Virus record (IMG/VR): IMGVR_UViG_3300035520_001075
Span: 32,001-96,000 of that record
Reading direction: 5' to 3' (one strand)
Length of the DNA: 64,000 nt
Source of the DNA: a virus
Taxonomy: Duplodnaviria > Caudoviricetes
Numbering within the stretch: the first letter of the stretch is position 1; each line of letters starts with the position of its first letter. Shown here piece by piece: positions 1 to 31,700 of the stretch. The notes under the pieces were generated by a model. The model was not told the origin of the DNA, made no database searches, and worked only from the letters and a program-made list of their open reading frames with translations. The position numbers and the translations under genes are program-made.

Positions 1-196
1 TAATAAAGCGGATAATCAGCAGCTAAATTCTTAGGTTTTGAAATAATTTTTCTAAAATTTTAAAGAAGAAGTTCAACGACTATTGGTGATGAATGTAGCC
101 AAGTAAGATTACTTTAATCTGAAATAGAAGACAGCTTTATGCTGAAGATATAGTCTACTCCCCTTAGTAAATATCGGGAAACCGAGGGTAGAAAGG
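1..196 (+). mobile_element. Group I intron TMP-I1 (5' end outside the window)
   Basis: Core motifs Q AATCAGCAGC, R GTTCAACGACTA and S AAGATATAGTCT. Terminal G at 196 is followed by exon sequence encoding IARFTEL. Confidence 0.85.
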
Positions 197-3100
197 AATA
201 GCCCGTTTTACAGAATTGTCTGAAAACGTCTCAGCAGAAGATTCTGAATTTGATGACTTAGACTACAATGATGTAGATACGGCATTAAAATCTGTAGGTA
301 TCTCATTAAAAGATGCCACAGGACAATTTAGGGATTTGGACGATGTATTTTTAGAGTTAAGCTCTAAATGGAGTACATTGGACCGTAATACCCAGCGTTA
401 TCGGATACCATTCCATTTTTTAAATGTGTTTGTATCACAAGAAAAACATTTTTAAAATATTGACTTTAATAATATTTTGTGATATAATATTATTAGTAAA
501 GGAAAATCTTTACTAAATATTATAGTTAGGAGTGATATGAAAATGGTTGAAGGAAAACCAGTTATAATTAATGGAAAGGAAACACAGTATTTTTTATTTA
601 AGAATGGAGATTTATATAATGAAAATACGCATAGAATTGCACAAGGTGCAATAAATCAAGGGTATATAAGATTTACTCTTGAAATTGATGGAGAAACTAT
701 AGGCATTTATAAACATCAATTAATGGCTCAATTATTTATTCCAAACCCTGAAAACAAACCTATTGTTCATCATAAAGATGGGTGTCCAAGAAATAATACC
801 TTAGATAATTTAGAATGGGTAAGCCAAGAAGAAAATCTTAATAAAATTATTAATCCAGTTGAACATAAAATAACTGAAAAATTAACATTAGAAGAATTAG
901 AAGAAGAAGAATGGAGACCTTTACAAAATAGTAAATACGAAGTATCAAATATGGGTAGAATTAAAAATTTACAAACTGGAAAAATAACTTTTGGTAGTAG
1001 GAATAAAAATAGTGGCTATATTAGGTGGACATATAATGATTTAAATGGAAATCGACAAGAAATTCAAGCTCATAGAGCTGTTTATATGGTTTTCCACCCA
1101 GATGAAAAAATCAATGTTATTAATCATATTGATTCTAATAGAGGTAATAATAGATTAAGTAATTTAGAGAATGTTTCTCAAAGAGAGAATGTTATAAAAA
1201 GTTATTATCAAACAAAAACAAAACAGACAAAACTAACTGGACAATATGATTTAGAGATGAATTTAATTCAAGTTTTTCCTAGTACCTCAGAAGCTGCAAA
1301 AAATATTGGATTAAACAATTGTTCAAATCTCTCTCGTGCGATGAAAACTGGCGGCATTAGCCATGGTTATTATTGGAGGGAAATTTCAAAAGCAGAATAT
1401 GATGAATTCTTAAATAAAAAATAATAAAGCTAGGTAACGTAACCCATTGAATTGCGGGAATCTCCTTTAAAATAACACAACCAAACAATTCTAAGAATTG
1501 CGGCGAAGGTAATGACTAAGGTATGGTAATATCGTGTTATTTTGGACAATCCGCAGCGAACTTATTTACTTTTTAGTGAATAAAGCGTTCAACGACTATC
1601 GAAATTATAAGTAGAGTAGATTTTTGGAAATCGAAGTAGTGGGGAGTTAGTTATTAACTCATGATATAGTCTAGCTATTATTGAAAGATAATAGAAAAAC
1701 TGATAGCAACTACTGCGGCTTGACTTTAAACGGGTCGCATAAAATCTTTTGAATTGCGGGGACATAATTAAATTTTGAAATACTAAGCAGAAGCGGCGAT
1801 GGGTAATTCCAAAGGTATAGTAAAAAGTTTCAAAATATTATAATCCGCAGCGAATTTTTCTAATAGAAAAAACGTTCAACGACTATCGAAAGCAAATTGT
1901 AAGTAGAGTAGATTTTATAGAGTCGAAGTGGAAGACACTCTAAAAGAGTGAAGATATAGTCTAATATTTATTAATATAATAAATATAGGGTTCTCGTTAA
2001 AATGCTGGCGAAGTGTACAGCCTAAAAAAACACAATTCTTTCAAATGCTGGGACATCTTAAAGCCCATTATACCACAGCACAAAGAGAAATCTTAAATGC
2101 GAAGGTTCTAAAAAATAATGGGATTTATAGGATACTATAAAATAGACAATCAGCATCCAAGCACCGCCAAGGTGAAGGTTCACAGACTTAAAAGAGAATT
2201 ACTAATAGTAAATTATATAGTCGAGCTTTATTGAAAAATAAAAGGAAGTGATTTAATATGTATAAAACAATTATGATTAATGAGTAGATAACAGAATATT
2301 TAATTTTTGATGATGGGCGTTTATTTAATAAAAAGACAAATCATTATTTAAAAGGAAGCATTAGTTCAACTGGTTATAGAACTTATTAGCTAACAGTTAA
2401 GGGCAAATACTATAATATGCTTGCTCATAGATTAGTAGCGGAATATTTTTTAGACAATAAAAATAATTTGCCTTATGTTTATCATAAGGACGGTAATCGT
2501 CTTAATAATTATAAAAATAATTTAGAATGGGTTAGCTTTTCTGAAAATTCAATAGAAGCCTATGCGGCTGGCCGCAGAACGTCTCATGCTACTAAACAAT
2601 ATATTACAGAAGAAGAATTAGCTAATAAAGAATGGAGACAAATTGAACAAACTCAATATTATGTTTCTGAGTATGGAGATGTTTATAATTCTAATACGAA
2701 AGCAAAATTAAGACCAAAGAAAGATGGCTATTTACGCTATTCAATTTTTATTGATAATGAAATTAAAATAATTCCTGCTCATATTTTAGTTTATAAAGCT
2801 TTTGTTAATAAGGAAATTCATAATGAAATAGACCATATAGATGGTAATAAACTAAATAATCACTATACCAATTTAAGAGATATATCTCATTCTGAAAATA
2901 TGATTAATGCAATGAATAATGGTCATAGAAATAAAATAGCGGTAGAGCAAATTGATGAGAATGGAAATATTGTTAAAATTTTCCCATCTATAGCTGCCGC
3001 CGCAAAAGAAATGAAATGCCAACCTGCTCTAATAAGAAGGGCAATAAAAAACAAAAACAAAACTCATAATTACTATTGGAAAAAACATATTAAATAATCT

Positions 3101-6100
3101 ACTTGCAGCAGAGTAGATTCTTAGCTTAAAATTTAAGGCTACAATATTTGAATTGCTGGAAACTCCTTAGAGCCTAATAAACTACAACATAAAAAGAAAT
3201 TTTAAGTGTGATAGTTTAAAAATTATTAGGATTGGACAATCAGCAGCCAAGCATCGTTAAGATGAAGGTTCAACGGTCATTACGTAGGAATAAGCATTCC
3301 GAAGCGGAGAATTTCTGGAAAGATAAGATATGACCTTTTCTTATAGGAAACTATAAGCCATATTGGAAAGTTATTTAGCGAATAGCTTTAAAAATAAAAG
3401 TTAATGGAAGATTACGATAGAACAGTGGAACTTGTTGAAACAGCACAAGATTCTACTGGTAAATCCTCTGAACAATTTGCAAAATATCAAGATACACTCG
3501 AAAATAAAGTTAATAAATTAAACGTTGCCTGGGAAAAATTAAGGTAGAAATTTGTTAGCTCAGATATATTTAAGGGAGCTATTGAAAGTATTACAAAACT
3601 TGTTGATAAATTAAATAGCTTTAGTATTGCGGATTTTGCAGCATTGGGAACTGTATTTGTTACACTTGGCAATACTGCTGCAGAATCTTTTTTAAATGGA
3701 TTTCGTTCTACTCTAAAAGGAGTCGGACAAATAACAACCATGATGTCAGAAAAGTTTACTTTACAAGCCTTTCCTGAATTTAGTAAAAATTCAAAAGAAA
3801 AATTACAAAAAGAACTTGAAAAAAGTAATAATTGGGTAGAAAGAGCAACATCTAATTTGGAAGCTAATAAAACAGCAAGGTCCGAAAATTATAGTCTTTT
3901 AAATTCTCTGAAACAAAAGTAGGTAAAAAATCTTGAAGAAGTTAAAAATTTGAAAAATTCTCAACTAATAAGTCTCATGCGTGGAGACAGTGATGAGGTA
4001 CTACAAAGAATTGAGAATAGTTTACAAGAAAAACAAAAAATAGGAGAACAAATAGGAGAAGATCTTCAAGCAACAGAACAAGAACAAGAGAAAATAAATT
4101 AGGCTATTGTAAAAGGAAAAAAGGATTTAGCTGAAGCAAAAGCAGACCAAAGTTTTAAGACTCAAAAACTACAAGATTCTGTAGTTGTAGATTCTACAGA
4201 ATTAGCTGAAACTGCAAAAAATTCTTTCGTTACTGCATTTACCACTGGTATTACAGTAGCTTTTGCAACTGAAAATCCTATTAAAGCAGGGCTTTCTGCG
4301 GCAGTGGCAGGGGCAGTAGCTTTCTTGCCTATTATTTTTAAAACAATAAAAACGTTAATGACAAAACAATCTTTGAGTTTGGGTCAAGCAGCTGCAAAAG
4401 CCTTTAATTCAGGATTGGGCCCTTATGCAATTATTGTCGTGGCTGTTGCTGCTGCTATAGCTGCAGTTGTAGCTGGAATAAAAAAATTACAATCAACCAT
4501 GGAAGCCAATTCTATTGGTGGCCGCATTAGTGCTCTTGAAGAAGATATTGATAATGCCACAGAATCTGCGACGAAGTTAAAAGAGGCTTTATCAAAAACA
4601 ACAGAAGAGAAAAAATCATTAGAAGAAATTAAAGAAACTTATAATGAGCTAAAAAATAAGCTAATTTTAACAGAAGAAGAGCAAGAAGAATATAATTCAA
4701 TGGTAGAGACTTTAAAAGAGAGTTATCCAGAATTAATTACTTACTATGATGAACAAAATAATAAAATTACAATTTCCAACTCTTTATTAGACGAACAAAT
4801 AGAAAAGGTTTCGGCATTACAAAAATTAGAATCTCAGCAAGTGTTAGCAGCGGATTATAAAACAGAAGGATTGCAAAATCAATATGATACGTTAAATGAA
4901 ATACTAAGCGGTTATTCTAAGTTTGGCTTTGATGCGACGTGGGCGACAGAAGATGACAATATATTTAAAGAATCTTCTTTTAATACTAACACTATAAGTA
5001 TGATTGATGAAGAAGGCTTATTAGATATTTATAATAAATATCTCAATAAAAGCACACCTGTTGTTTCAATGTCAGCGGAAGATAGGAACGCTGTTATAAA
5101 TGCAATACAATATGCCTTCTCAGGTGATTATGCTTATCTTTCAGGTATTTCAGACAATTATAAAGAAGGAGCACAAGCATTAGCTAATGCAGCAGAATCA
5201 GAAAGAGAAATCATAGATGGATTAAAGAATGACTTTGCGGAACTCTATAGCTATGCTACCGATTATTATAGTACAAACTATTCTGATATGACAGAATCTG
5301 AGCAGGATATACGAGGGGCAATTGCCGCGGCATATATTGACAAGTTAAATGATATTGTTATTTCTGATAGTACCGATATGTAGGACGTATTGACATAGGT
5401 ATCGGAAATTCTTGGAGATTCAGGGATTGTAAATTTAGATTAGTTTGAAAACCAATTTACATCAGCATATGCCAGTCTTAAAAGTGGGTGGAAAGGAGCG
5501 AATACTTTAGCTTAGAACGATGCTTCTGCTAGGTCATTATTAGCTCTTTTGGGTATTACCACAGAACAAGAATATGCTGACCTTGGTATAAAAGATTGGG
5601 GTAATGATGATATTTTAGCTTATATGAATAGTAATTTTATTCCTTTATTATCAGAACAAATAACAGAAGCTTTAGGAGAAGTAGAAATAGATAGTAATGC
5701 ATTATCTGTAGCAAATGAACTTTTTACTGACGTAAACGAGATGTCAGCAGAAGAATATGCAAATGCTAAAAACACTTTATCTGAGGCATTAACCCAATAT
5801 GATGATATTGATATAGATACTGTTTTGGGAGCTCTTTTTGATTAGACTACAATTGATAATGCCGTAGAAAGTTTACAGGCCTATAATAACACGTAGGATT
5901 TTACCATTAGTAATTACACTACAATGGCATCTGCTTTAGCTAACTTACAAGACCGTTTCGGTTCTTTAGATGCATATGCACAAGACTCTTTCCAAGATTA
6001 TATTAATTTTATTCAAGGACAAAATTTATCAAGTGATGTCGCAAATGCATTATTTAATATTGATGTTTCTTCTTTTGATGGACAAACAAGAGAAGAAATA

Positions 6101-9100
6101 AAAGAGGCAATAATTGAACTAGTATCAAATGAAGACCTCGAAGGGGCATTGGGAGAGAAAGAAGCAAAAGCTTTTGCAGAGGGCTATATTAATGAATTAG
6201 AAACAGGAGCTTTGGCGGATTTTAGCATTACTTCTGTTGTTGGTTTTGAATCTGAAATTGATGATATAAAAGAATAGGCTAAAACTATTACAGATTCAAT
6301 GTCTTCTATTACTGATGCAATTACCAATTAGGCGGAAAAAGGATACATTACCGTTAGCAATTATGCTACTTTAGCAGAACAATTAAGCAGTTTAGACTTA
6401 GATGTAGATGATTATGTTTCTGTTAATGATAATGGAGATTATAGTTTAAATGCAGAGGCTTTAAGAGATGCTTATGCAGAACAACTTAATGATAAAGAAA
6501 ACTTAGTTGAATTGGCAAAAGAAGATTTACAAAACGGTATTGATGAATTAGATATTCAAATTCAAATCCTTGAAAGTATGCTCAACGGAGTTAATGCAGA
6601 AGATGCAAAGGGAGAAGCCATTGCTCGAAACAATAGACTTTATGCGGAACAATTAGCATTATAGGCTGGTCAAGACGTTGATACTTATTTAACAAATCAT
6701 AATATAAGTTTATCTGATGCACAAAGTTCGTTAACGACTGAACAAAAGAAAATAATACAAGATCAAATTGATTCCCTGTAGGCTCAAAAAACAGATATGG
6801 AAAATAAAAAGAATAACTTAACTGAGGATGAAGCAGAAAAGATAATATCTCCTTATTTAAATGACCTTTTACGTACATATACTGAGGCTTGGGATGATGG
6901 AGTAGAAAAAGCAGAAGACGCAGAAGATATTGAAGACGCTTTAGAAGCTATTGAAGAAGCAGAGCAAGATGTAATTGATAAAACAAAAGAACTTCAAGAA
7001 GCATATCAGGGCTCAGCTTGGTATGAGAGTGCAGTGGATTAGCTGTATAATTATACTACTGCTTTGGATTATGTTGCTGATAAAATTAGTGATTTTAAAG
7101 ATACTCTTGATGATTTAAGTGCTGATGATAATATTACTGAAAATTTAAATGGATATTTAGAGAATATTAAGAAATATAATACAATTTCAGAAGCAGAGAA
7201 AAAAGTTCTTGAACAAGCTAATCAGTCAATTATTGATGGACTTGACAATACTTTAACTAAAGAATTACAGGCTCTTAGCGAAAAATATAGTGATTATAAG
7301 ATTGATACAAATGTTTCTGATTATTATACTTATGATGAATATAGCGGAACTTATATGGTTAATAGTAATGCACTGGCCGCCGCCAAGATGTCAGATACCA
7401 TTAAGAAAGAAATCGAAACACAAGTTCAGCAGTTAAATAGTAATTTAAGTTCAATAAACGATATAAATGAAAATGTAAAGAAATATGAGTAGGAATTAGA
7501 AGATTTACAAGAAACAGCATTAAACAATCAAGTTGCTCTTGAAGATGAAGTAATTTCAACCTTAAAGCAAAAGTATCAAGAAGAAATTGATAATGCTAAA
7601 GATAAATATCAAGCATTAGAAGATGCTAATGATGAATATCTTGAAGCTTTACAAGATGCAATTCAGAAAGAAAGAGATTTAAGAAGTGAACAGGATAGTT
7701 GGGACGACTTAGCTAAGAAAGAAAAGAAACTGTCTTTAATTTCAAGAGATACTTCTGGGGCAAATCAATCTGATATTCAAAGTTTACAAGATGAAATTGA
7801 TAATGATAGACAAACATTATTAGATGATACTGTCGATAATATTCTTGAAACAATGAAAGAACAATATGAAACACAGAAAGAACAAAATGATACTCAAATA
7901 GAAATTCTTGAAAATCTTCATAGCGACGAAGCAATCACAAAAGAAGCTGTAAGTCTTATCGCAAGTTGGCAAACAACAGATGATATGATATTATGGATGA
8001 CTCAAAATTCAACAGAGTATGAAACTTGGTCTGATTCTAAATATCAGCAAATGGTTGAATCTTGGGAAAAAGAATTCCTAGCAAAACAAGCAGCAGATGA
8101 AATATTATAGACAGATTTATTATCTCAGACTAAGACAGACGCGGAAGAAATTGAACAAACATATGAAGCTTATGACCAAACAGCAACAACTCAGATAACA
8201 ACTGCTATTGGAGACGATATAGATACTGTTTCTACAGAAATTAGTGATGCTAAAAAGGCTTTAGAAGAGGCACAAAAAACATTAATAGAAAAGCAAGAAG
8301 CTTATAATGAATTAATAACTAATATTGATGAAAATGTTGCAGATATAGCAAACGGAAAAACAGCGGATAATGATAATAACGATAATAAAGATAATGATAC
8401 CGTTGCAGACGAAACAGCAGCATATTATAAGGAACAATATGATAAAAATGCTAATAATCCAGCTGCTCAAAGTGCTATAATTTCAACAGCTAAAAATAAT
8501 GGATATAATTTTTCTAATGGATTTTTTTATAAATCGTCTAGTATTTAGAATAATGACGATGATACTTCTAAACTAACAGAAGCCAAGGCATTATATACAC
8601 AATATTTAGCTAATGAAGGTAATGCTAATGCACAAACACAAATTGGTAATTTAATATCTAAAACTGGTTATACTGTTGAACAAATCAAAGAAACATATAA
8701 CAATTCAGGATTATCGTTGATAAATAAAGCAACAGTTTCAAGTGAAGATGCCGTAAAAGAAGGTCAGTGGTATTCTGTAAACACAGGAACAACTAATGAA
8801 TGGACTGAATACGGACAAGTTCTATGTGCAGACACCCAAACAGAGTTAGAACAAATTATACAACTCGGCAGAAAATAGGGCTATCTTGCTAATATAGAAT
8901 TTGCTATGACCCATAAAGGAACCGATGAACCTACATACTTTTTTAAATCAGGCGGCCTTGTTGACTACACTGGTCCAGCATGGGTAGATGGTACAAAAAC
9001 CAAGCCAGAAGCTTTCCTCTCAGCATCAGACACTCAACGTATAGGAGAAGCCGCAGAACTTCTTGCTAATATTCCAATACTCAACTCAACATCAACTTCA

Positions 9101-9265
9101 GCAACCAATCTTGCCACAAATGTTGGAGATACAACAATTGAAGTTCACATTAATATAGAAGAAATCTCATCAGATTACGATGTAGATTCAATGATTGATA
9201 GAGTTAAACAAGACATTGTAGATGTTTCTAATCCAATAGGAACACAAGTAATGTTGTCGAAATAA
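197..9265 (+). CDS. Tape measure protein (5'-partial, spliced, TAG read-through)
   Basis: Exons 197-401, 1703-1720, 1989-1997, 3106-3126 and 3401-9265. The spliced product reads DTALKSVGISLKD..GQFRDLDDVFLELSSKWSTLDRNTQRY-IATTAA-GSR-QQSRFLA-LMEDYDRT. Track ORFs 3644, 4304, 5549, 5924, 6797, 7064, 7853 and 8906 share one frame broken only by TAG. The protein is coiled-coil and Ala-rich, ends GGLVDYTGPAWVDGT...TAA, and lies upstream of Dit. Confidence 0.9.
460..488 (+). promoter_or_regulatory. SigmaA-type promoter for the intron HNH gene
   Basis: TTGACT-17 nt-TATAAT with an extended -10 TG. Same consensus as the - strand early promoters. Confidence 0.8.
537..1424 (+). CDS. Intron-encoded homing endonuclease with two HNH domains and a NUMOD1-like C-terminus
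   Basis: Motifs VHHKDGCPRNNTLDNLEW and INHIDSNRGNNRLSNLE, NUMOD4-like EEWRP..YEVSNMGRIK, C-terminal F.S..EAA. RBS GGAG. No internal TAG. Confidence 0.88.
   Translation: MKMVEGKPVIINGKETQYFLFKNGDLYNENTHRIAQGAINQGYIRFTLEIDGETIGIYKHQLMAQLFIPNPENKPIVHHKDGCPRNNTLDNLEWVSQEENLNKIINPVEHKITEKLTLEELEEEEWRPLQNSKYEVSNMGRIKNLQTGKITFGSRNKNSGYIRWTYNDLNGNRQEIQAHRAVYMVFHPDEKINVINHIDSNRGNNRLSNLENVSQRENVIKSYYQTKTKQTKLTGQYDLEMNLIQVFPSTSEAAKNIGLNNCSNLSRAMKTGGISHGYYWREISKAEYDEFLNKK
1721..1988 (+). mobile_element. Group I intron TMP-I3 (no ORF, 268 nt)
   Basis: P1: exon GCGGCT pairs with GGTCGC. Core AATTGCGGG, AATCCGCAGC, GTTCAACGACTA, AAGATATAGTCT. Terminal G at 1988. Confidence 0.88.
1998..3105 (+). mobile_element. 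Group I intron TMP-I4 with an HNH gene in the P9 region
   Basis: IGS TGCTG-GCGA: P10 TGCTG pairs with 3' exon CAGCA. Core AAATGCTGG, AATCAGCA, GTTCACAGACT, ATTATATAGTC. Terminal G at 3105. Confidence 0.85.
2258..3097 (+). CDS. Intron-encoded double-HNH homing endonuclease with two in-frame TAG codons
   Basis: RBS AAAGGAAGTG precedes ATG 2258, in frame with track ORF 2417. The N-terminus MYKTIMINE*ITEYLIFDDGRLFN..GYRTY*LTVKGK aligns with the N-terminus of the 537..1424 paralogue. Two HNH motifs. Confidence 0.82.
3127..3400 (+). mobile_element. Group I intron TMP-I5 (no ORF, 274 nt)
   Basis: P1: exon TAGCT pairs with GGCTA. P10 TTAA pairs with exon TTAA. R GTTCAACGGTCA and S AAGATATGACCT show a compensated P7. 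Terminal G at 3400. Confidence 0.88.
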
Positions 9266-9320: not shown

Positions 9321-12104
9321 ATGATGAGACAGATAAAGGATTTTGTTGGCTTTAGATTTGGTAATGTCCATTCAAGTGAACTTAATTTATTAGTAGTATC
9401 TTCCAGTGATAGATATGAAAAGAATTTACTTCCAGACCCAACAGATTATACAACTGAAATCCCAGGTTCAGATGGAACTTATTACTTTGGACAAACCTAC
9501 AAAGACAGAACTTTTACTGTTAATGTTGCTTTTGATAGAGTAAGTGAACCAATCTTTAGAAAAATTTCTTAGTTATTTGCTAATGATAAACTTCAAGATT
9601 TAGTCTTCGATGAAATGCCTTTTAAAACTTACAAAGCAAAAATTAAATCTAATCCAGACTTTAAATTCATTTGTTTTACAGATAGAGATACTGGAGAACG
9701 AGTTTATAAAGGAGAAGGAACTTTAGTATTTATTTGCTATTTTCCTTATGCTTTTGGTTTTAATAAGTACGTTGTAAGAGCGGCAGACTTCTATAAGTGT
9801 GCTCAGCCGAAAGACATTATTATTAACAAACTTGAAGATAATCCATATAGAAAAAAGAAAAAGCCAAAGTTTTGGCCTGCTATTATAAAAGACCATTATA
9901 ATGTTGAATATAATATGAGAACTCCTTGGAAGGGCGGCTACCCTACAATAGAACAAGTTCAATGGGGAGAACTTTATTTTAAAGGCCCAGAAGATTCTGA
10001 GAAAAAAATGATTATTGATGTGCGTAATTATTGGAAGAATATCCCAGAATGGCAGGGAACAGCAAAGTTATTAACAACTCCTACTCTTGATTATGACCAA
10101 GAATTGATTTTTGCACCGCAGTTTTCAAAGTGCAAGTTTATTAATATGGACACTGGTTATTATACTGAAAATGATATGATGGGTAGTAGAATTTTAGTTT
10201 ATAATCCAGGTGATTTACCAATTGAATTTGAATTAAAAATGGAAGAGAATAAAAGAACTTTCTGGTCTTCAAGAATGGGCAATGGTTTTAGAATTAGTCG
10301 CTTTAATGTTGAAAGATTATCTATTGAACAAGCAGTAGATTGGACTGGATTAACAACATTAGAACAAGTAGATGATAAACCTTATAAATATGGTAATAGA
10401 TATTTTAAGTTAGACGATAGCGAACCAGATGATACAGAGCTTTTAAAAAATATTGATGAGTATACTAATAAGAATTGGTTGGAAGAAGACATTCTTATGG
10501 AAGAAGGAGATACTCATAATTATGGCTATTATGATAGAGAAGGTAATGAAGTTATTACAGACGTGATAGTAGATGGAAAAGAGGGTAATACTGCTTACAC
10601 AACTCCTAATGGGGCGGCCGCTAAAGAAATTGCATATAATTTACATTTAAAAGAATATCAAGATTCATTATATAATTTTATTGACGAAAAAACCGAATAT
10701 CGTTTATTAAAAGCAGCCCACCCTCATCACACTTATATTGCTGAGCCAATTCCTCGCCAAAAGCTTGGACACTATATCAAATTATTCTATTGGCAGTCAG
10801 AACAGCAGTTTAAAGATAACTCAAAAAAATTAGCAAACCTTTATCCACAGTTAAAGTTTGAAGATGGAATTAAGATTGCAAATAGATATGATGAGTTAAG
10901 AAGTCTTTGTATAAATGAAGATGAAGAATATGAGTTATATTGGGAAACTTTGAAAATGGCCATTCTTGATAAATACAAGGATTGTAATGTTTTTTCTGAG
11001 AAAACTTCTACATATTATGATTCAACTTATACTTATGAAGATTTTGTAGAGAGCTTCTTATATCACCCAATGGAATTTATTACAGTCGATACAGATAAGG
11101 AACTTGATTATGGTCAAGATACTTTAAATATCTATAATTATCCTCAATGGATTACAGAAGATTACTTAGAAATCGACCCATCAGCACTTGCTTATGATGA
11201 GGATTATAGAACTTATAATAAAACCGAAAATATGCCAGATGCACTTTTCCTTGACACAGAAGAAAGAATTCTTTTTGAGAATCAAAATCCAGATGACTTT
11301 TATAAATATAAACCTACTAAAATACTTTACAATGATTCTATTAAAAAAGGAAAATGGTTTAAGTTGCCGCCAGGTTGGAGCTTAATAGCAATTGAACCTA
11401 TTTCTGATGAGGAATATTGGGGTGGAAAACGTTGGTTAGATGCAAGACCTTTTGATTGGGGCTATGGCGGTGATGAGAATCGGAATCCACGAGAAGTTCA
11501 ACAGTTATTTGATGGCGTATATGATTATTGTGTTAATAAATTTCTCAAAAACTCAGAAGATGAGGGAACTTATTATAAAGAAGAAGCTTTTAGTCGAGAT
11601 AACGTAAATACATGGTTGGCAAAAGGCTATAATAATGGACTTTTTGATTTAAACGGTGGAAAGAATTCTCCAGCAGAAAAATCGTATATTAATAATGATA
11701 ATCAGCCAGTGTTAGACATAAATACACTTGATGATGAAGATAGAATGAAGATTAGGAATTGGTTCTTCTATTATAAGGAACAAGCGAAGTCAAAAAATGA
11801 TACGTTTGCTTATCAGCTCTATTGTAAAAGAGAAACACAAGCAGAATACTCTTTCTTAAAATTATTATATCGAGTTTGGAATAAAATTTCCCCTTACTAT
11901 TCTTGGACTGCAGGAAAAGGCGTTTTTGAAGATGGAGAAGATTTGGACGATAGCGGCCGCCCTAAGAGATGTATCAATGCTCATATCTCAGATTGGTGGT
12001 ATTATGCTTGCAACTATATGTGGGCAAATTTCCCTCCTTTGTATTGGGGACTTGCAGATTTATTAAACGGATTACAAATTAAATATGTTCCACTATTTTA
12101 TTAA
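9321..12104 (+). CDS. Distal tail protein (Dit-like) with a large insertion, about 927 aa
   Basis: Track ORFs 9321 and 9615 join through TAG 9570-9572. Dit-like N-terminus (F.FG...S..L, IPGSDG.YY, LVFDEMPFK.Y.AK). Directly follows the tape measure gene. Confidence 0.75.
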
Positions 12105-15522: not shown

Positions 15523-18500
15523 ATGAGTATTATTCTTGTTGAATAGTCAAATATTGGTAGTTATACTACTACCACGACAACTCCACCAATTAGAATAAAT
15601 AAGAACAATGGTAAAATAACAAGTGTCCAATATTTATCATATAATCGTAATGTTGCAGGAGACGTAAAAACATTAACAGTTAGTAGTGATAGTTCTTGGT
15701 GTGCCTTTTTTATACAAAGTGGAGCTAAATATACTTCTGGTAATGTTCCAACAGTTTTTAATCAAAGTAATTTATGGCCGTTAGTACAAGCATCAGCTAA
15801 TTCTAATTTAGTATATTTAAATTCACATGAAAATAATAAAGCTTTGGCAATAACTCCATCTCCTACTGCGGCCGAGGCATTATCAAAATTTGTTTGGACT
15901 TTTAGAAGCTGCATTACTCCTTTTATAAATAACCGATTCTTTTTAAACAGACCATCTCAATATACGATATGGGGCGTTGTTTGTCTTTTTGGAGTTCCTT
16001 TTCTTTTTGCAGCCGATAGTTTTAGTGATTTAATTAGAGAAGATAAATTTACAATAAATAATACTACTGTTGATACTACTTCCTCATCTTATAGTAATTT
16101 ATGGAACTTAGAATTGTCAACAGGTTTCTATACAGGTTCAGGTTATCAAGTATATAATTCTTCTACTAAAACAAGAAGTTTTACAAATAAAACGACCTAT
16201 TATATAGGAACAAAAGAATCTTCTGATTCTACTGGCACTTATTTATCTTGCAGTGCAATAACTCAAACGATATCTACAATTTCAAGCGGCGGCTGGACTA
16301 AATTTTATTTATTAAAGCGAGCAACAGGAAAAACCAGCGGTGCATATTATCAAGAAGTTGATAAATTTGGTAGTTTAAAAAATAGTTCAACAAACACAGA
16401 AACAGGGGCAACAACATCTACGCCAACAACCACTCAAAATACAGTTGTGCTATCTGACCCTTATAGTAAGGCGGCAAATGTTTCCAGTAGTTATATATCT
16501 AATTTTTCTAATTATAAAATCCATTTTATTCCTTGCAATAATAAAAGTGCAAAAGTTAGTGGTTTAAGAATTGATTTTCTTAATGTTTCTGGAACAACCA
16601 GCGAAATTTTATACCCTTATGTAAAGACAGAAACGACTATTGTTGATGAAGAGGAAATGTTTGGTCAAATAGATAAAGCAATTTCAAGTTCAATATCAAA
16701 TTTAAAAAATCAAAAAGATAGTAGAACATACTTAAATTATATTCTAAAAATTGAATCAAAAAGCGGCAATAAATCATTAACGCTTTCAGATTATTTTAAA
16801 GATGATTCTAATGTGGGAAAATATAATTTTAATTACTATGGAATTAATGGAACAACATATTCTACTTTAAAATCTGGAATTACTTTTTCTCAATTCCTTT
16901 CTGATAATCAAATTAAAATTAGAAATTTAACATAGAGAGATTATAGTGCATCTTTATCATTGGAGCAAGAAAGAAAATCTTTAAATCTCTATAGCTTGGA
17001 AATTTTTGAAGCTTATACAAGAGGACATGATTTTATTCAGGAAAATTATACCACTGTTCGTGCAGAAGAAATGAATCCGAATGATTCATCAGAAACTTCA
17101 AAAATAATGAGTTTTGATGATAACTACTTTACTTATAAATATACTGGAAGAGATATTGATATTTTCTGCGGCAATGGTAATGTTCAGAACTTTAAAAAGC
17201 AATTACCAAATGGTACATCAATAACTGACCCAGTTTATTGTGCACTGATTCATAGCTCTGATTTATTATTAGAATCAGACGTGACCCTAGGAGAAAGCTA
17301 TGGAATTAGAAACTATTTTATTGAGGCTTTAAAATACCCTAAATGGGAAGACGATACCGCAGATATTAAAACGATTAAATTGGATTCAAATAGCAAGCCA
17401 CAATATCTATATAAAGATAGCTTTAAAATAACAGATTATATTTCTGATGAAGGTCTTGACGGCACTTTGTACACTGACGATGATATAACCGTTTTAACTT
17501 CTAAGATTGATTTAACACAATGTGAATATTATCAGCCTGAAAAAGCAAACTATAGTAATAGATGGTGTGATTGCTCTTATAAGACTGGCGGCGAAGAAGT
17601 TTCCACAGAATGTATTTATTAGAAGAGCGGCTATTGTCCTTATCGTTTTGAAACTGAAAAGCATCCAAGACGAATTAGAACATTAGCACAATCAAAATCT
17701 AATCGCTTTAATTTAATTCAAGAGCTTTGTAAAGTTTTTGAATTCTATCCTTATTTCTATATTGAACACGAAAAGAATGGTAAAATTAAGTTAGATGAAA
17801 ACGGCAATATGAAAAAGCACGTTTTCTATATGACTGAGAAAGGTAGTGAGAAATATTCTGGTTTTAGATATGAGAAAAATTTATCAAGTATTACAAGGAC
17901 AACAGACTCATCTTCAATAACAACAAAATTATATGTTGAAAGTAATGATTCTTCTACTTCTTCAACAGGCTTGTGTTCAATACAAACTGCAGAAGATAAT
18001 CTTGGAAAGACATCTTACATATTAGACTTCTCTTATTATACTGAAAAAGGAATGTTGAATGCAGAACAAACTCAAAGAGATATCTATGGAATTGAATCTG
18101 GCGACTTTGCTTTCTTACCAAGAATCGGGGCATATAATGATTAGTATGATGATTATTCTAATTTAATTATTACTATGACTGGCGAAGAGCTAACTGATAT
18201 GGAAGCACAAATTGAAGTTTCTGTAGCTGGAATTACAAGTGCTTTGGAAGAACGACAGAAAGTTGCTCAGACAATGTATCAGTATAAAGTTCAAGCACAG
18301 CAGACGGCCGCCGCAAGTTCATTAACAGATTTATCTTCTTATACAACCTCAGATACTTATAAAAATTATGTAATAAAATATCGAGAACAAGCAACAATAC
18401 TTTGGGGATTAATTGAGACCTTATTTTTCTCTAATAACTACTTTTCATATCCTGTTAAGTTCTATGATAACAAAGGTAAAACAAGTTATAAGTTCTATAC

Positions 18501-26788: not shown

Positions 26789-27560
26789 TATTATCTTCAC
26801 TCCTATTTTCTTCAATTATTATTTCTTCATTTTCTTCTTCAAACAAATCATCAATTGTATTAATAACTTTATCAATGACTCCAAAATTTAAAGCTTCTGT
26901 GCAATTAAGACACCAGTCGTCTTTAAAATGCTTATCATATTCTTCTGCACTAATCTTTGTATGATTTATCGTCACGCTTTTTAAACTATCAAGTTGTGCT
27001 CTATAAAAATCAACTCTTTGGAGAAATTTATGAGCATCACCCATATCTCCTGAAGAACCCTCATGGAAGAGGAAAGTACTATAAGGAAAAGCAAATCTCT
27101 TAGTTCCGCAAATTCCAATAAAGAAGCCGCCACTATAACTTGTTCCAGTTGTTATTGTATAAATTGGCGTTGTCGACGTTTCCATTGCTCCTATTATACT
27201 GAATACTGCTTCAAGTTCTCCGCCTGGCGAGTTAATAAACATTTTAATTGGCACTCTTGCTTCTTTTGGAATATTGTTAATATTATCAATTCTATTCCAA
27301 AAATAAATTAATTCTGTTATCTGATTTGCCATTAGAGAAGTAATTTCTTCTGATACATAAAGATGTCTTTCATAGAAATCAAATGTTCCTATCGTAGCTT
27401 CTACATCTACTTGTTTATCAGGATTTGTTAGTTCATCAAGAATATCTTCGCCGCAACTCATACAAGCTTTATCATAGAAATTCTCAACTGTTTGTAGAAA
27501 TTCTTCTTTTGTTTTCATCGTTCCATCATCATTATAAATTGTAATTAGTTCTTCATTCAT
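26781..27560 (-). CDS. clpP: ClpP-like protease
   Basis: PIKMFINSPGG, catalytic Ser in SYSGG, His in FLFHE, C-terminal EALNFGVID. Confidence 0.85.
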   Translation of the reverse strand: MNEELITIYNDDGTMKTKEEFLQTVENFYDKACMSCGEDILDELTNPDKQVDVEATIGTFDFYERHLYVSEEITSLMANQITELIYFWNRIDNINNIPKEARVPIKMFINSPGGELEAVFSIIGAMETSTTPIYTITTGTSYSGGFFIGICGTKRFAFPYSTFLFHEGSSGDMGDAHKFLQRVDFYRAQLDSLKSVTINHTKISAEEYDKHFKDDWCLNCTEALNFGVIDKVINTIDDLFEEENEEIIIEENRSEDNNE

Positions 27561-27738
27561 TCATTAAATCCTCCAAATGTGATTTTTCTTTTTCTAAGAA
27601 TACTATTTCGTCAATGAGTTCGCTTAATCTTGGATTTAAAACAAAAATATCAAGCTTAATTTTTTCAAGTTCATTTTTTCTTTCTTTAAGGTCAAAGCAA
27701 GTTTTATCATAAACTGATTTAATATCTTCACTACCCAT
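27553..27738 (-). CDS. Small coiled-coil hypothetical protein
   Basis: RBS AAGGAGG precedes ATG 27738, just downstream of a promoter. Confidence 0.65.
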   Translation of the reverse strand: MGSEDIKSVYDKTCFDLKERKNELEKIKLDIFVLNPRLSELIDEIVFLEKEKSHLEDLMNE

Positions 27739-27773
27739 TTTATTTCCCTCCTTTTTTCTCATTTACTATAATA

Positions 27774-27802
27774 ATTATAACACAATTTGTATTAAAAGTC
27801 AA
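27774..27802 (-). promoter_or_regulatory. SigmaA-type early promoter
   Basis: TTGACT-17-TATAAT, followed by TATTATAGTAAATGAGA. Confidence 0.8.
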
Positions 27803-28730
27803 TACTTTTACTTTCAAAAGTTAATGGATTTTGCTTTAATAATAGTCTAATTTCACTATCGCTTTTATTCATTAGAGAAATAGCCTTGCTATCTTCTTTA
27901 TAGAAATTATAGTAAGATAACTGCGAATCTGAGTAATACCATTTAAAAATTTTATTAGATAGTTCATCTTGGACTTTGTAATCTTTAGATAATTTAAGTT
28001 GTTGGCGGCCGCCTATTTTTTTGAGATAAATTATTGTTTTTAAATCTTTTATAGGATGGCCGCCTTTGTAGAGAATTTTAATCGGTTTATCAATATTATT
28101 GATAATGAATGAACTATCATAATCAAAATCAGCTATTAATTCTCTATTCTTAAATGATTTAGAATAATAAGCAAAATCCTCGCATAGTTGTTGGTCTGAG
28201 AAAATTAAAGGATACAAGAAAATGAATTTGTGATTTTCATGATAATCTCTTAAAAAGTCTAATGCATTTGATTGTTCTATAAAATTATAGTCTGCAATAT
28301 AAATATCTTTTCTCTCTGGTTTAAAACCGCTAAAATCATTTGTTCCAACTCTTATATAAGAATTTTTCTGCATTTTATCTAAAAGTTTTTTATCTGCTAA
28401 TCTTTCCGTAAATGCTACATAAGGGAGATATGAAGGAGGGATTGCCGCAATTTCAGGAATTAAATTTGGATTTTTATGATAGAAGTTATACCCTAAGCAA
28501 TCGACTTTTTTATCACCTAAATCAATTTTAATTTTCTTATTAATTAAAGTATTTGGTTTCTCTTTGAAGACAAATACTTTATTAAAACGTTCAATACTAT
28601 CTTGCGGCCGAAGCATAGCCACGACATGATTATTCTAATAACAATAATTATAAATCTTCATTAATTCTAAATTGGGGTAGTTCTTTCCGCCACCCCATAG
28701 GTCTAAATCTAAAAAACCGTATGAACTCAT
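27792..28730 (-). CDS. Hypothetical protein (one TAG)
   Basis: RBS AGGAGGGAG precedes ATG 28730, in frame with track ORF 28622 across TAG 28637-28635. The N-terminus MSSYGFLDLDLWGGGKNYPNLELMKIYNY recalls PNL.LMK phage proteins. Confidence 0.65.
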
Positions 28731-28744
28731 TTACTCCCTCCTTT

Positions 28745-31700
28745 TTATTCATCAATTTCTATTCTTTCTATTGCACTTGACTTAATATAGCCATTTTCGT
28801 CAATCTCTTCTATTTTTTCAAAGAGCGGCCATTCTGTATTTTTATATTTCTTTGGAACAAAAGTGTCTCCACGTCTTATTCCTGTTATAATTAATTTTGT
28901 ACCTTTTGTAAACCAAGACTTTTCAATAACGTGTTTTACTCCGTTATTATCTCTTTGAGAAATTTGTTTATCCCAAACAGCGTATTGATTCTTCCAAATT
29001 TTTACTGTGATAACTGAACCGTCTACTGTAAGAAGAATAATTTGACTTTTATTTTTATCTTTGTCAATTACCGTTCCTGCTATTCTATTTAATTGGAAAA
29101 TATTAATTTCAGTTCCTTCTTTTGTTTCAAATGAACGTTCAATTTCTGGCTCTGGATTTAAACAGCTAAAATTTGAGATTCCATAGGCATTATATTTAAT
29201 TTTTGCTAATTCATGTGGGTGATAGTAAAAGCTAAGGCTTTCCATTTCCCACTGGGATATTGAGCCGCCTGCATACTTTTGATAGGTTTCGTCCAATAAT
29301 GAAGAATTGAGTTTGTTGAGAATTTCTTCTTGATTATCCTTAAACCATTCTCTTATTTTATCCATTCCTTTTTTATAGATATTATCCCAAATATTTTGCT
29401 TAATTGATGCACTTTGATTATTGCCAACATTAACATCTTCTAATAAACTATCATCATAATTTTCATTAAAGAAATTTAAAGCAATCTCATCTAGAATATA
29501 ATATTGACCTTTCTTAAAAGATTTTAAGTACTTATTAAAATTAAATAATCTTTTTTCATAATCAAACTCTTGCGGTAAAAGATTTTTATCAATTAACATC
29601 TGCATATTTTGTAAGGTAATTCTTTTCTTTTTATCACTAACAGTATCTAAATATTTCTCCATTATTTTAACTCTATTGCCATTATAGAGATTATCAAAAG
29701 CTCCCGACTTAATTAAACTAATCATTTGGATTTTATTAATTTTTACTTTGGATAGAAAGTCTTCTAAAGAAGTGTAAGGTCTGTTATCAAAAATTTCATA
29801 AACTAATTGAGTCCCAATTCTTGTGATACCTTTCATTCCATAAATTATCGCATTATCTTTTATTGAAGGAATGAATATTAAATCTGATTTATTTATATCT
29901 GGTGGGAGAACTTTAATTCCTTTTGAGATTGATTCACCTATTGCTGCGGCGATTTTGCCATAATTAACAGTTTTATTCCTTTTCTTTTCATCATTATCTT
30001 CATCATTAAAATCAGATTCTAATAAATCTGAACCACCTGCGTTGACTATTAAACAAGCACAATTCCAATAAATTTCAGGAAAATTTGTTGCTAAGTATAA
30101 GGTTTGAATGCCTACAAACGAATAAGCCAAACCATGCGTATGAAATATAAAATTTCATTACTGACTATTTTTTAAACGTTTTACAATGATGACTAATTCA
30201 TTAACGTTTACACTATTTCCAGTTATGTATCAATAATAACTGTACTTCTCATCTCACTGAGAATAGTCGATACAATATTTTTAAGACAGAGTACCTAAGA
30301 TTTTTTGATTTTTTTCTTTATTTTTGTTTAGAGGATAATATAAATTTTTATCAACCCTACTTTTACCACTATTAATTTTTTTTATAGTTGAATAACAAAT
30401 ATTATATTTTTTAGAAATCTCTAATAAAGTCATATTTGAAAAAATAATATCATATTTACATTTTTTTGACCAACTATCTTTACTCCTATCATATAAGGGA
30501 TAATTATTATTTGGGTTAAACCATTTATCTCCTTTATTAATCTGAGATAAATAACTTCGTGAGATATGATATTCTTTTGCTATTTCAGTTAAAGAACGAG
30601 AAGTCTTTAGTTCTTCAATTATTTTTTCTTTTAATTCTTTACTATATTTTCTACTTTTTGAACCTTTTAATAAAGGATAATTTAAGTCTTCTCTTTTAAA
30701 ATTCCAACCAGTATTGATATTTTGAAGAAAACTATCTTTTAAAAAGGGATATTTTTTCTGAATTTCAAAATATTGATATTTTTCACATAACATTCTCTGA
30801 ATGTCTCTAACTTGTTCTTCATTTAAAATTTTTGACGCTTTACAACATTCTTCAAAAGTTTTCTTTGGCTTCGCGCAACCATCACCACCAACTGTAAGAT
30901 TATATCCATTTTGTGTGGTTAATGTCTTAAAATAATCTATAAAGAATATTTCTCTTTCATTTAAATAATCTCTACCCATTTCATCAGGAATTTCTTCTAT
31001 AATTTCAAATTTAAAATTTTCCCATCCATATTTTCTAATTGCATTATGAAAAGGGAGTTTATAACTATGACTTTTAGTATTATAACTATCTGATTTATGG
31101 CCTCTTTTTCTTTTTTCAATATTGTTAGTTTGGCCTATATATGATTTGGAATTTATTTTATTAGTAAATTTATATATATAAAGCATAATTTCACCTCCTT
31201 TTCTTAGTTAAATTTAGTCTGTCTTAAATTTATCACGAGATTTTACCCTCGTTAGCCATATAATTTATCTTTAGTCCTCAGATAAAATATTTTATATAAC
31301 CTCATTGATAAAATGATTAAGTGTATTAACCCCATTACAAGGTTTTGCAAACGCGTATGACATTTGAGGCATCATAACTGTTTCCCAAACATATTCTCCC
31401 ATCGCTACAGTCGGGCATTGAGAAATAAATTTTTTTCTTAATTCTGGAACTTTTTTTACTTGTTTTTTGGAGACAATTTTTCTGGCTACATTTGATTCGG
31501 CTAAAGTAAAATGTGCTACATTTTTATCCATACAAATTAACATCAAATCCTCTTGGCTAGCTGGTACACCAAAATTAGGAAGATAATATGGTTCTAATAT
31601 CTTTATTTCTTCTTCTGTTAATCCAGCATCTCTTACTTCTTGATACCATAAATCCATATTGTTTTTTAATCTACAATATCTGTCGAGAGGACGTTCTTTT

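Follow-up and report, generated by a model that had tools for sequence, protein, structure and literature searches.

The tape-measure gene of the TAG-recoded, SPbeta-like phage described here is divided into 10 exons by nine putative group I introns of the RF00028 type, which are predicted to splice with guanosine. All nine are housed in codons 510-672, a 162-codon stretch where the PhageMin_Tail core is best conserved. From comparison of the sequences, this arrangement very probably reflects the accumulation of selfish introns and endonucleases in a mosaic tape-measure gene, with splicing most likely constitutive.

Architecture of the tape-measure gene

The phage is uncultured, and its record of 157,483 bp (here G000) has direct terminal repeats and an estimated completeness of 100%. 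The window analyzed here is the stretch of 64,000 nucleotides for which adding 32000 to a coordinate gives the G000 coordinate. The initial annotation had described a tape-measure gene split by five introns. These five are indeed present in the window, which starts inside the gene; upstream of it, the gene has a further four introns and two micro-exons of 12 and 17 nt, for nine introns in all. The features are given below with their matches to the Rfam RF00028 covariance model (core P3-P9; gathering score, 50).

G000 26914-28443: exon 1
G000 28444-28862: intron a; only the P7'-P9 part matched, 21.7 bits
G000 28863-28983: exon 2
G000 28984-30081: intron b; only the P7'-P9 part matched, 20.4 bits
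G000 30082-30164: exon 3
G000 30165-31617: intron c; RF00028 match outside the window, 62.3 bits
G000 31618-31629: exon 4, micro-exon of 12 nt
G000 31630-31905: intron d; RF00028 match outside the window, 69 bits
G000 31906-31922: exon 5, micro-exon of 17 nt
G000 31923-32196: intron e (I1 of the initial annotation), 274 nt, without an ORF; its 3' part is window 1-196 (+), with G196 as the last base; RF00028 match at window 1-178, 43 bits (5'-truncated), or 57.1 bits with the upstream DNA (L011 7904-8178)
Window 197-401 (+): exon 6 (IARFTEL...NTQRY), 205 nt; PF10145 profile positions 151-191; 77-100% identity to relatives
Window 402-1702 (+): intron I2, 1301 nt; endonuclease ORF within the P1 loop and ribozyme core spanning about 1425-1702; RF00028 match at 1399-1693, 54 bits
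Window 460-488 (+): promoter-like site (TTGACT, 17 nt, TG-TATAAT) within I2, preceding the HNH ORF; consensus match only
Window 537-1424 (+): I2 HNH homing-endonuclease ORF, 295 aa, no TAG codon; HNH_3 (5e-18), NUMOD4 and NUMOD1 (Pfam); phrog_59 (1e-53)
Window 1703-1720 (+): exon 7, micro-exon of 18 nt (IATTAA), colinear with IAT[ITV]AA of homologues
Window 1721-1988 (+): intron I3, 268 nt, without an ORF; RF00028 match at 1710-1982, 69.8 bits
Window 1989-1997 (+): exon 8, micro-exon of 9 nt (GSR); GSR is invariant in nearly all homologues
Window 1998-3105 (+): intron I4, 1108 nt; core at the 5' end (1998-2250), with the ORF filling the 3' part and ending 8 nt before the 3' splice site; RF00028 match at 1985-2243, 46.7 bits, below the gathering score
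Window 2258-3097 (+): I4 HNH homing-endonuclease ORF, 279 aa with two in-frame TAG codons as sense; HNH_3 (2.6e-13; Pfam); phrog_59 (6e-61)
Window 3106-3126 (+): exon 9, micro-exon of 21 nt (QQSRFLA), colinear with QQSRF[IL]A of homologues
Window 3127-3400 (+): intron I5, 274 nt, without an ORF; RF00028 match at 3090-3357, 32.5 bits, below the gathering score
Window 3401-9265 (+): exon 10, 5865 nt (LMEDY...), the remainder of the tape-measure protein; 18 in-frame TAG codons and a TAA end

The spliced coding sequence of 7881 nt is in frame for 2626 codons, and its only internal stops are TAG. Exons 2 to 9 would contribute 486 nt to it, out of the 6,957 nt that separate exons 1 and 10 in the DNA. 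Single exons match profile positions 2-63 and 151-191 of PF10145 (PhageMin_Tail, TP901 core), each below the cutoff alone, and the spliced product aligns without gaps to PF10145-bearing homologues and to the annotated tape-measure protein of phage Perkons. The next gene (window 9321-12104) is Dit-like, matching the Dit families phrog_33 and phrog_202; the gene thereby occupies the tape-measure position before Dit in the tail module, and relatives carry YomU tube-like genes upstream. The recoding and intron load had raised the possibility of a crAss-like phage, an identity that we rejected in view of the SPbeta-like tail module and of a Psychrobacillus phage as the closest isolate.

Intron cores, splice sites and homologues

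The five group I cores proposed for window positions 1-3400 were all matched by RF00028 (E values, 1.5e-16 to 2.2e-5). Across the gene, seven of the nine introns matched the full model, five of them at or above the gathering score; the matches of introns a and b are partial because insertions or ORFs split the core. In I5, the P7 pairing is kept through compensatory changes, with GGUCA/UGACC replacing GACUA/UAGUC. A match to SNORD38 at window 81-150 (E value, 0.79) was attributed to chance.

Intron ends were read by hand, and their positions were fixed independently by protein colinearity. This reading reproduced to the base the annotated intron ends (G196, G1702, G1988, G3105, and G3400) and exons (197-401, 1703-1720, 1989-1997, 3106-3126, and 3401 onwards). 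Every one of the nine 5' exons ends in a U paired with a G of the internal guide (P1), the terminal U and a guide having been pointed out earlier for I2 to I5, and all introns have a terminal G (omega G). The junctions of I2 to I5 are all phase 0, as had been reported for the four around the micro-exons; that of intron e is phase 2 and yields TAMKT-I-IARF, as in homologues. An in-frame TAA or TGA is found at the start of five introns and TAG at the start of none. For intron c, a splice site one base later (L011 6165) would break the frame, which 6164 fits. An 18-nt exon 5 would need an intron ending in A; we kept the 17-nt version because it gives both the U.G in P1 and a terminal G.

The guide pairings are individually distinct. 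P1 pairs AGACCAU with GUGGUCU in intron e (U.G at the splice site), exon CGUUAU (window 396-401) with guide GUAACG (window 1434-1439) in I2, UGCGGCU with GGUCGCA in I3 (U1720.G1733), UCGU with GCGA in the proximal part of I4 (U1997.G2008), and UAGCU with GGCUA in I5; in intron c, it comprises only three exon base pairs. The guides of c (L011 7275-7282) and I2 lie beyond the ORF. P10 pairings include UAGC with GCUA in I2, CAGCA with UGCUG in I4 (5 bp), and UUAA with UUAA in I5. The P10 helices of the nine introns measure 5, 6, 4, 5, 2, 4, 3, 5, and 4 bp, that of intron e being unconvincing, and sum to 38 bp compared to 21 +/- 3 for random exon starts, a value reached in none of 5000 trials. The P1 and P10 guide sequences differ among all nine introns.

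Relatives bear out these assignments. The motif TQRY-IATTAA-GSR-QQSRFLA-LMEDY, which the initial annotation had rebuilt across the micro-exons, is colinear without gaps with uninterrupted homologues in four IMG/VR phages, Psychrobacillus phage Perkons, and about 85 database proteins, and the spliced coding sequence shows no gap at any of the nine junctions relative to the intron-free loci L013 and L017. Two independent contigs from other samples, L012 and L015, share these introns and their positions, with about 77 to 98% nucleotide identity, and include orthologues of I5. Exact empty sites are seen for I3 in both contigs, where exon 7 is directly joined to exon 8, and for intron a in L015. 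The 9 nt of exon 8 are identical in L012, L015, and L018. Taken together, three close relatives use eleven intron sites. Relative to L012 and L015, P1 covaries with the exon in introns b, c, I2, and I5; in I2 of L012, for example, P1 is AGAUAU with GUAUCU, amounting to two compensatory double changes. Gene finders miss the intron-exon structure entirely and break the 2626-residue protein into fragments, and many database homologues are themselves fragments, so misannotation of tape-measure genes is systematic in this phage group.

Each intron would fold as a ribozyme whose internal guide pairs with the last 3 to 8 exon bases (P1), placing U.G at the cleavage site. GTP would attack there, and the freed exon would then attack after the terminal G, aligned by P10. 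A micro-exon would be almost wholly used in the process, its first bases by P10 of the preceding intron and its last by P1 of the following one.

Endonucleases and the origin of the array

Endonuclease ORFs occupy four of the nine introns (b, c, I2, and I4). Those of I2 and I4 encode HNH_3 with NUMOD domains; that of b encodes a Zn-ribbon/DUF723 protein matching phrog_559 and phrog_681; and that of c matches phrog_314 (homing endonuclease) and has no Pfam match. They are predicted homing endonucleases of the HNH, GIY-YIG-type, and Zn-ribbon families, which are known from Herelleviridae introns (PMC11878797). The promoter-like site in I2 agrees with 11 of 12 consensus positions, has an extended -10, and is among the two best plus-strand matches in 8.9 kb. 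The overall promoter count in these data was not above that of shuffles (55 versus 46 +/- 6). Both 11/12 sites lie ahead of endonuclease ORFs.

The five ORF-less introns each lie 9 to 121 nt from an ORF-bearing one. Kinship among the cores was assessed by local alignment, global identity being uninformative (62% in shuffled controls). Adjacent introns share local identities of 76% (a-b), 72% (I2-I3), 70% (I4-I5), and 67% (c-d), and these pairs make up four of the top five among 36 (hypergeometric estimate, about 0.005). Introns a, d, I3, and I5, all ORF-less, are each most similar to their ORF-bearing neighbor; for I3, the closest relative is the core of I2. Because the ORF-less introns are near, and four of them most similar to, ORF-bearing neighbors, local copying and hitchhiking are suggested. 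Judging from similarity and spacing, intron copies would have been retargeted to nearby sites, and the ORF-less introns may now be carried along in co-conversion tracts of their neighbors' homing events. Few copies of the tape-measure protein are needed per virion, so the gene may tolerate the cost of its introns. As a counterpoint, inefficiency at any step would build up over nine successive ribozyme reactions.

Splicing order, exon skipping and known systems

The initial annotation held that the 9-nt exon, as partner for both P10 of I3 and P1 of I4, may force a splicing order. No order is forced through such an overlap, since different nucleotides are used: P10 of I3 takes GUU (1990-1992), and P1 of I4 takes UCGU (1994-1997). 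An order with I3 ahead of I4 is still suggested by a distal extension of the I4 P1, GGCUG with CAGCC (window 2018-2022), which reaches across the junction of exons 7 and 8, its exon strand being the last four bases of exon 7 and the first base of exon 8. In relatives that lack I3, the two strands read GGCCG and CGGCC, a single compensatory change of U-A to C-G. Predicted folding is -15.1 kcal/mol with I3 removed and -6.7 kcal/mol with I3 in place, and P1 of I3 and the distal helix of I4 are mutually exclusive because both use bases 1717-1720. These features suggest that I3 leaves before I4 forms its full P1. The extended P1 of I4 was also sought in the more distant relatives L020 to L022, but there the intron is displaced by one base downstream and is of a different family.

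This 5-bp helix, its compensatory change, and the energy difference are what could speak for an ordered cascade or gate, in which intron removal follows a fixed sequence (I3 ahead of I4 as a minimum), delaying tape-measure production or tying it to GTP or folding late in infection. We consider such a gate unlikely: the covarying pair is a single case, a G.U wobble was also tolerated in a swap test (-14.4 kcal/mol), and two group I introns of placozoan cox1 that flank a 1-nt exon are spliced in either order (PMC5436844). Quite unlikely, too, is the fuller version, an ordered hand-over chain of all nine ribozymes in which each micro-exon would go from P10 of the preceding intron to P1 of the following one, and I4, at the least, would lack its full substrate helix until I3 is gone. 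The nine GTP-dependent steps would then time tape-measure synthesis late in infection or gate it by energy, and in-frame skipped isoforms might arise as by-products.

That exon skipping yields functional in-frame tape-measure variants lacking 3 to 16 residues is very unlikely. The phase 0 junctions of I2 to I5 would permit it. The I2 and I3 cores, paralogous and 72% identical, flank an 18-nt exon, and introns 2 and 3 of Twort orf142, likewise paralogous, skip a 23-nt exon (PMC10136302); an exon of the phage SIOphi polymerase transcript is skipped in 47% of reads (PMC11878797). Yet the P1 and P10 guides of I2 and I3 differ, as do all nine guides, and skipping in engineered tandem introns was suppressed when their P1/P10 elements were distinct (PMC10136302). 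Moreover, the 16 residues of the micro-exons are nearly invariant in about 100 homologues, so their deletion would probably be harmful. Finally, although the sequence is a metagenomic assembly without an isolate, a dead gene or misassembled contig whose introns need not splice has no direct support and is extremely improbable given the terminal repeats and estimated completeness, the frame intact over 2626 codons, and the sharing of introns and sites by L012 and L015 with compensatory P1 changes and conserved exons.

The array is an extreme case of a known phenomenon. The initial annotation's precedent, the tail gene orf142 of Staphylococcus phage Twort, has three group I introns, with a 23-nt exon between two similar ones (PMC10136302, PMC11878797). 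Both are virion genes of a Firmicutes myovirus or siphovirus with several IA-like introns and a short exon between similar introns; here, however, there are nine introns rather than three, exons down to 9 nt, and four endonuclease ORFs, and exon skipping, known for Twort, is hypothetical here. The precedent was also incomplete, as group I introns TMP-IVS1, IVS2, and IVS3a/b have been published for tape-measure genes of Bacillus cereus-group prophages (Tourasse and Kolsto 2008, PMC2504315). These interrupt a host gene of the same family. There, too, similar introns occupy different sites, with P1 retargeted (80% identity between IVS1 and IVS2), the introns are in frame and begin with stop codons, and only some have endonuclease genes. 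They differ in occupying three sites, no gene having more than two or three and no micro-exons being reported, compared to nine introns in one gene here.

Introns of Bastillevirinae (Herelleviridae) likewise have phrog_59, phrog_559, and phrog_314 endonucleases and IA-like cores, and their covariance-model matches are interrupted by endonuclease ORFs lying in loops, but they occur only in DNA metabolism and terminase genes, at most three per gene (PMC11878797), rather than nine in a tape-measure gene. The crAss-like Zeta-group phages combine TAG or TGA recoding with as many as 14 introns in a genome and a capsid gene split five ways (PMC7886860); they are another lineage, without a tape-measure gene, and that paper did not map individual introns and micro-exons. 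Mitochondrial cox1 offers a further parallel, an essential gene whose conserved core holds many group I introns and has micro-exons between two ribozymes: Agaricus bisporus cox1 is, by the title of the paper describing it, the largest reservoir of mitochondrial group I introns (PMC2987802), and in placozoan cox1 a single exon nucleotide separates two group IB introns (PMC5436844). Those introns, however, are organellar and often maturase dependent, and transcription and translation are uncoupled there, unlike in bacteria.

Phage genes in the searchable literature have at most three or four introns; nine in 162 codons, with exons of 9 to 21 nt, is the densest arrangement that we found in a phage or bacterial gene. 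The array provides a natural test bed for two group I ribozymes sharing a substrate of 9 to 12 bases, and it bears on how intron guide sequences are retargeted to neighboring sites and on how introns without ORFs are maintained next to those with endonucleases.

Exon and intron layout of the tape-measure gene

An Rfam scan of window positions 1-8000 with the group I model RF00028 gave five matches, all on the plus strand, with E-values from 1.5e-16 to 2.2e-5.

RF00028 matches in window 1-8000
1-178, +, 43 bits, clipped by the window edge
1399-1693, +, 54 bits
1710-1982, +, 69.8 bits
1985-2243, +, 46.7 bits
3090-3357, +, 32.5 bits

These cover the five introns that the initial annotation had placed in the tape-measure protein (TMP) gene, and direct reading of the sequence agreed with it to the base on the intron ends (G196, G1702, G1988, G3105, and G3400) and on the exons E6 to E10 in the list below. 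All five introns are real, but the gene exceeds the window and has nine in total. The parent record is a 157,483-bp IMG/VR virus with direct terminal repeats, estimated complete; its DNA upstream (L011, window coordinate plus 8000) holds three more full RF00028 matches (7261-7572, 7598-7854, and 7904-8178) and partial matches at 6040-6071 and within 4784-4815. Using intron-free homologues as a ruler for exon/intron borders, we divided the TMP gene, whose ORF starts at L011 2914, into ten exons and nine introns.

Exons and introns of the TMP gene, with predicted P1 (5' splice-site helix with guide) and P10 (helix of guide region and 3' exon); ^, splice site
E1: L011 2914-4443
Intron a: L011 4444-4862; P1 GGCGGCU/GGUCGCU; P10 5 bp
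E2: L011 4863-4983
Intron b: L011 4984-6081; P1 AGCAU/GUGCU; P10 6 bp
E3: L011 6082-6164
Intron c: L011 6165-7617; P1 CCU^UGAAA/UUUCAGGG (L011 7275-7282); P10 4 bp
E4: L011 7618-7629; 12 nt, ENIG
Intron d: L011 7630-7905; P1 ACAUUGGU/GCUAAUGU; P10 5 bp
E5: L011 7906-7922; 17 nt, TAMKT plus two bases of Ile
Intron e (I1 of the initial annotation): L011 7923-8196, ends at window G196; P1 AGACCAU/GUGGUCU; P10 2 bp
E6: window 197-401; 205 nt
I2: after E6, ends at window G1702; P1 CGUUAU/GUAACG (window 1434-1439); P10 4 bp
E7: window 1703-1720; ATA GCA ACT ACT GCG GCT, IATTAA
I3: after E7, ends at window G1988; P1 UGCGGCU/GGUCGCA; P10 3 bp
E8: window 1989-1997; GGT TCT CGT, GSR
I4: after E8, ends at window G3105; P1 UCGU/GCGA; P10 5 bp
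E9: window 3106-3126; QQSRFLA
I5: after E9, ends at window G3400; P1 UAGCU/GGCUA; P10 4 bp
E10: window 3401-9265; LMEDY...

The spliced coding sequence is 7881 nt (2626 codons, ending in TAA), with all nine introns confined to codons 510-672. Their phases from a to I5 are 0, 1, 0, 0, 2, 0, 0, 0, 0, confirming the phase 0 proposed for the four micro-exon junctions (I2-I5). The frame from window 3401 to 9265 is interrupted by TAG alone (18 codons); therefore, TAG is a sense codon in this phage. The complete spliced sequence contains 19 in-frame TAG and zero internal TAA or TGA. An in-frame TAA or TGA opens five of the nine introns, and TAG opens none. Related loci have TAG at Gln positions of this phage (ETT*EAP, NT*RY, and TA*NS in L015; RNT*RY in L020). 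The only tRNAs found by ARAGORN were tRNA-Gln(UUG) and one odd tRNA at 123400-123473 of the whole record (G000, window coordinate plus 32000).

Protein colinearity and intron content of relatives

The core of the protein is uninterrupted in four of seven related IMG/VR loci (L013, L014, L016, and L017), where it reads ...SQMTAA-LRGF...KTASIA-SSAGM...TTQEAP-ENIG-TAMKTI-IARFTEL...NSQRY-IATIAA-GSR-QQSRFIA-MMENY.... Against L013 and L017 the spliced product is gapless at 9/9 junctions, the sole indel being one residue within E6, and the micro-exon residues IATTAA, GSR, and QQSRFLA have gapless counterparts in the intron-free homologues. The annotated TMP of Psychrobacillus phage Perkons reads ...KAY-VATTIA-GTY-QQSRFLN-LMEGY. 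Among the best 120 of 133 database matches to E6, QRY-[IV]AT[ITVQM]AAGSRQQSRF[IL]A is uninterrupted in ~85, with a break directly after QRY in ~10 and directly after GSR in ~17. The micro-exon residues are therefore close to invariant, and introns are frequent at both positions in this TMP family. One homologue is labelled as from a Clostridia MAG. E1 and E6 fall on positions 2-63 and 151-191 of the Pfam profile PF10145, and the gene after TMP is Dit-like. In the more distant relatives L020-L022, genes upstream of TMP match the YomU tube, YomV, YomW, and YomX families, pointing to an SPbeta-like tail module in this phage group.

L012 and L015 derive from other samples, and the exons of L012 are 94-100% identical to those of this phage. 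Introns b, c, I2, I4, and I5 are common to all three at identical sites. P1 covaries with the exon in I2 (CGUUAU/GUAACG here and in L015, AGAUAU/GUAUCU in L012), in intron b (AGCAU/GUGCU here versus AGCGU/GCGUU in L015), and in intron c, whose P1 is UGAAA/UUUCA on the intron side here versus UGUCU/AGUCG in L015. I3 is absent from L012 and L015, which read unbroken ...GCGGCC^GGTTCTCGT, an exact empty site. L015 also lacks intron a, both loci have other introns instead of d and e, each has an intron after ACGGC, and L012 has one after GAAAACAU with a LAGLIDADG ORF; L018 has intron c only. Counted over three close relatives, eleven sites in this stretch thus bear an intron.

In two unrelated intron families of the relatives (L015 6699-7056, L012 ~2975-3356, L020 ~5970-7150, and L022 ~5930-7080), the apparent last exon base is C, not U; it faces an A of P1, which makes the pair at the 5' splice site a C.A wobble. 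The junctions ACGGC^...G^AAUGAAAAC and GUCGAC^...G^AACAAUCA were placed there because protein colinearity demands them. The P1 pair next to the wobble covaries between L020 and L022 (A-U versus G-C).

Splice-site helices, splicing order and exon skipping

U ends 9/9 5' exons of this phage, and G ends 9/9 introns. The U and internal guides initially noted for I2-I5 are borne out by predicted P1 helices with U.G at each cleavage site. P10 totals 38 bp over the nine introns, versus 21 +/- 3 with random exon starts (0/5000 trials). The endonuclease ORFs of c and I2 lie within the P1 loop, so that P1 spans ~1 kb in these two introns. I5 has the lowest model score, yet keeps its P7 pairing via compensatory changes (GGUCA/UGACC versus GACUA/UAGUC in the others).

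The micro-exons are used almost entirely, with 5' bases in the P10 of the upstream intron and 3' bases in the P1 of the downstream intron, without overlap. The initial annotation had proposed that the 9-nt exon may force a splicing order by serving both P10 of I3 and P1 of I4; these helices use different bases (1990-1992 and 1994-1997), so this ground for a forced order fails. In placozoan cox1, a 1-nt exon is spliced in either order (PMC5436844). With I3 gone, GGCUG at the E7/E8 junction can pair with CAGCC at 2018-2022, extending P1 of I4 to ~12 bp (-15.1 kcal/mol, versus -6.7 with I3 present). L012 and L015, without I3, have GGCCG with CGGCC, a compensatory change, and bases 1717-1720 belong to I3's own P1 too. 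This one covarying pair is modest evidence that I3 leaves before I4.

Alternative splicing by skipping of micro-exons is speculation. Skipping would keep the frame, and the flanking pair I2/I3 is paralogous, like the Twort pair whose 23-nt exon is skipped (PMC10136302); however, the micro-exon residues are nearly invariant in homologues and guide sequences differ among all introns.

Endonucleases and intron origin

The ORFs of I2 and I4 encode HNH_3/NUMOD proteins (phrog_59), that of intron b a Zn-ribbon/DUF723 protein (phrog_559 and phrog_681), and that of intron c a homing endonuclease of phrog_314, the same families as reported for Bastillevirinae introns (PMC11878797). The L012 intron after GAAAACAU adds LAGLIDADG as a fourth family at this hot spot (ORF at 2322-2950, motifs LGFLYADGYV and GLFDGDGSI); its G+C-richer core was not recognized by RF00028. 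The I4 HNH ORF (window 2258-3097) has two in-frame TAG and the I2 ORF none. Translation of these endonucleases under different code regimes is one possible reading, decay of the I4 ORF another. Judged by near-perfect match to a sigma-70/sigma-A type consensus, the two top plus-strand promoter-like sites of the region (11/12 positions plus TG) directly precede the ORFs of c and I2, which suggests that these endonucleases are transcribed independently of the TMP gene.

Promoter-like sites
L011 6207-6235, +, intron c: TTGACT, 17 nt, TG-TATAAT
Window 460-488, +, intron I2: TTGACT, 17 nt, TG-TATAAT

In intron a, otherwise ORF-less, a strong ribosome-binding site (AAGGAGG) at L011 4608-4756 is followed, within the P6 loop, by an ORF of 44 codons, perhaps a relic of an endonuclease gene since lost.

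Local alignment showed the highest core similarity between adjacent introns (a-b 76%, I2-I3 72%, I4-I5 70%, and c-d 67%), each pair comprising one ORF-bearing and one ORF-less intron. The ORF-less copies would have acquired guides for sites close by, a retargeting of the kind that Tourasse and Kolsto reported for TMP-IVS1/IVS2 (PMC2504315), and would be kept via co-conversion when the neighbour's endonuclease cuts an intron-free allele.

Further RF00028 matches lie at window 37657-37960(-), 38398-38682(-), 44648-44876(-), and 51856-52064(-) and at G000 16249-16579(+), and the core motif AGATATAGTC recurs at window ~49129(-) and 55863(-); from these, the group I introns of the genome probably number well above 14. 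In crAss-like Zeta-group phages, one capsid gene is split into five pieces and a genome can have up to 14 introns (PMC7886860). Twort orf142 has three introns against nine here, Bastillevirinae genes have at most three, none in a tail gene (PMC11878797), and Bacillus cereus prophage TMP genes have three intron sites (PMC2504315). Mitochondrial cox1 has comparable intron arrays and smaller exons (PMC2987802, PMC5436844). The nine-intron TMP gene is a real and extreme form of a known kind, and its mechanism, as read from sequence, is ordinary group I splicing.
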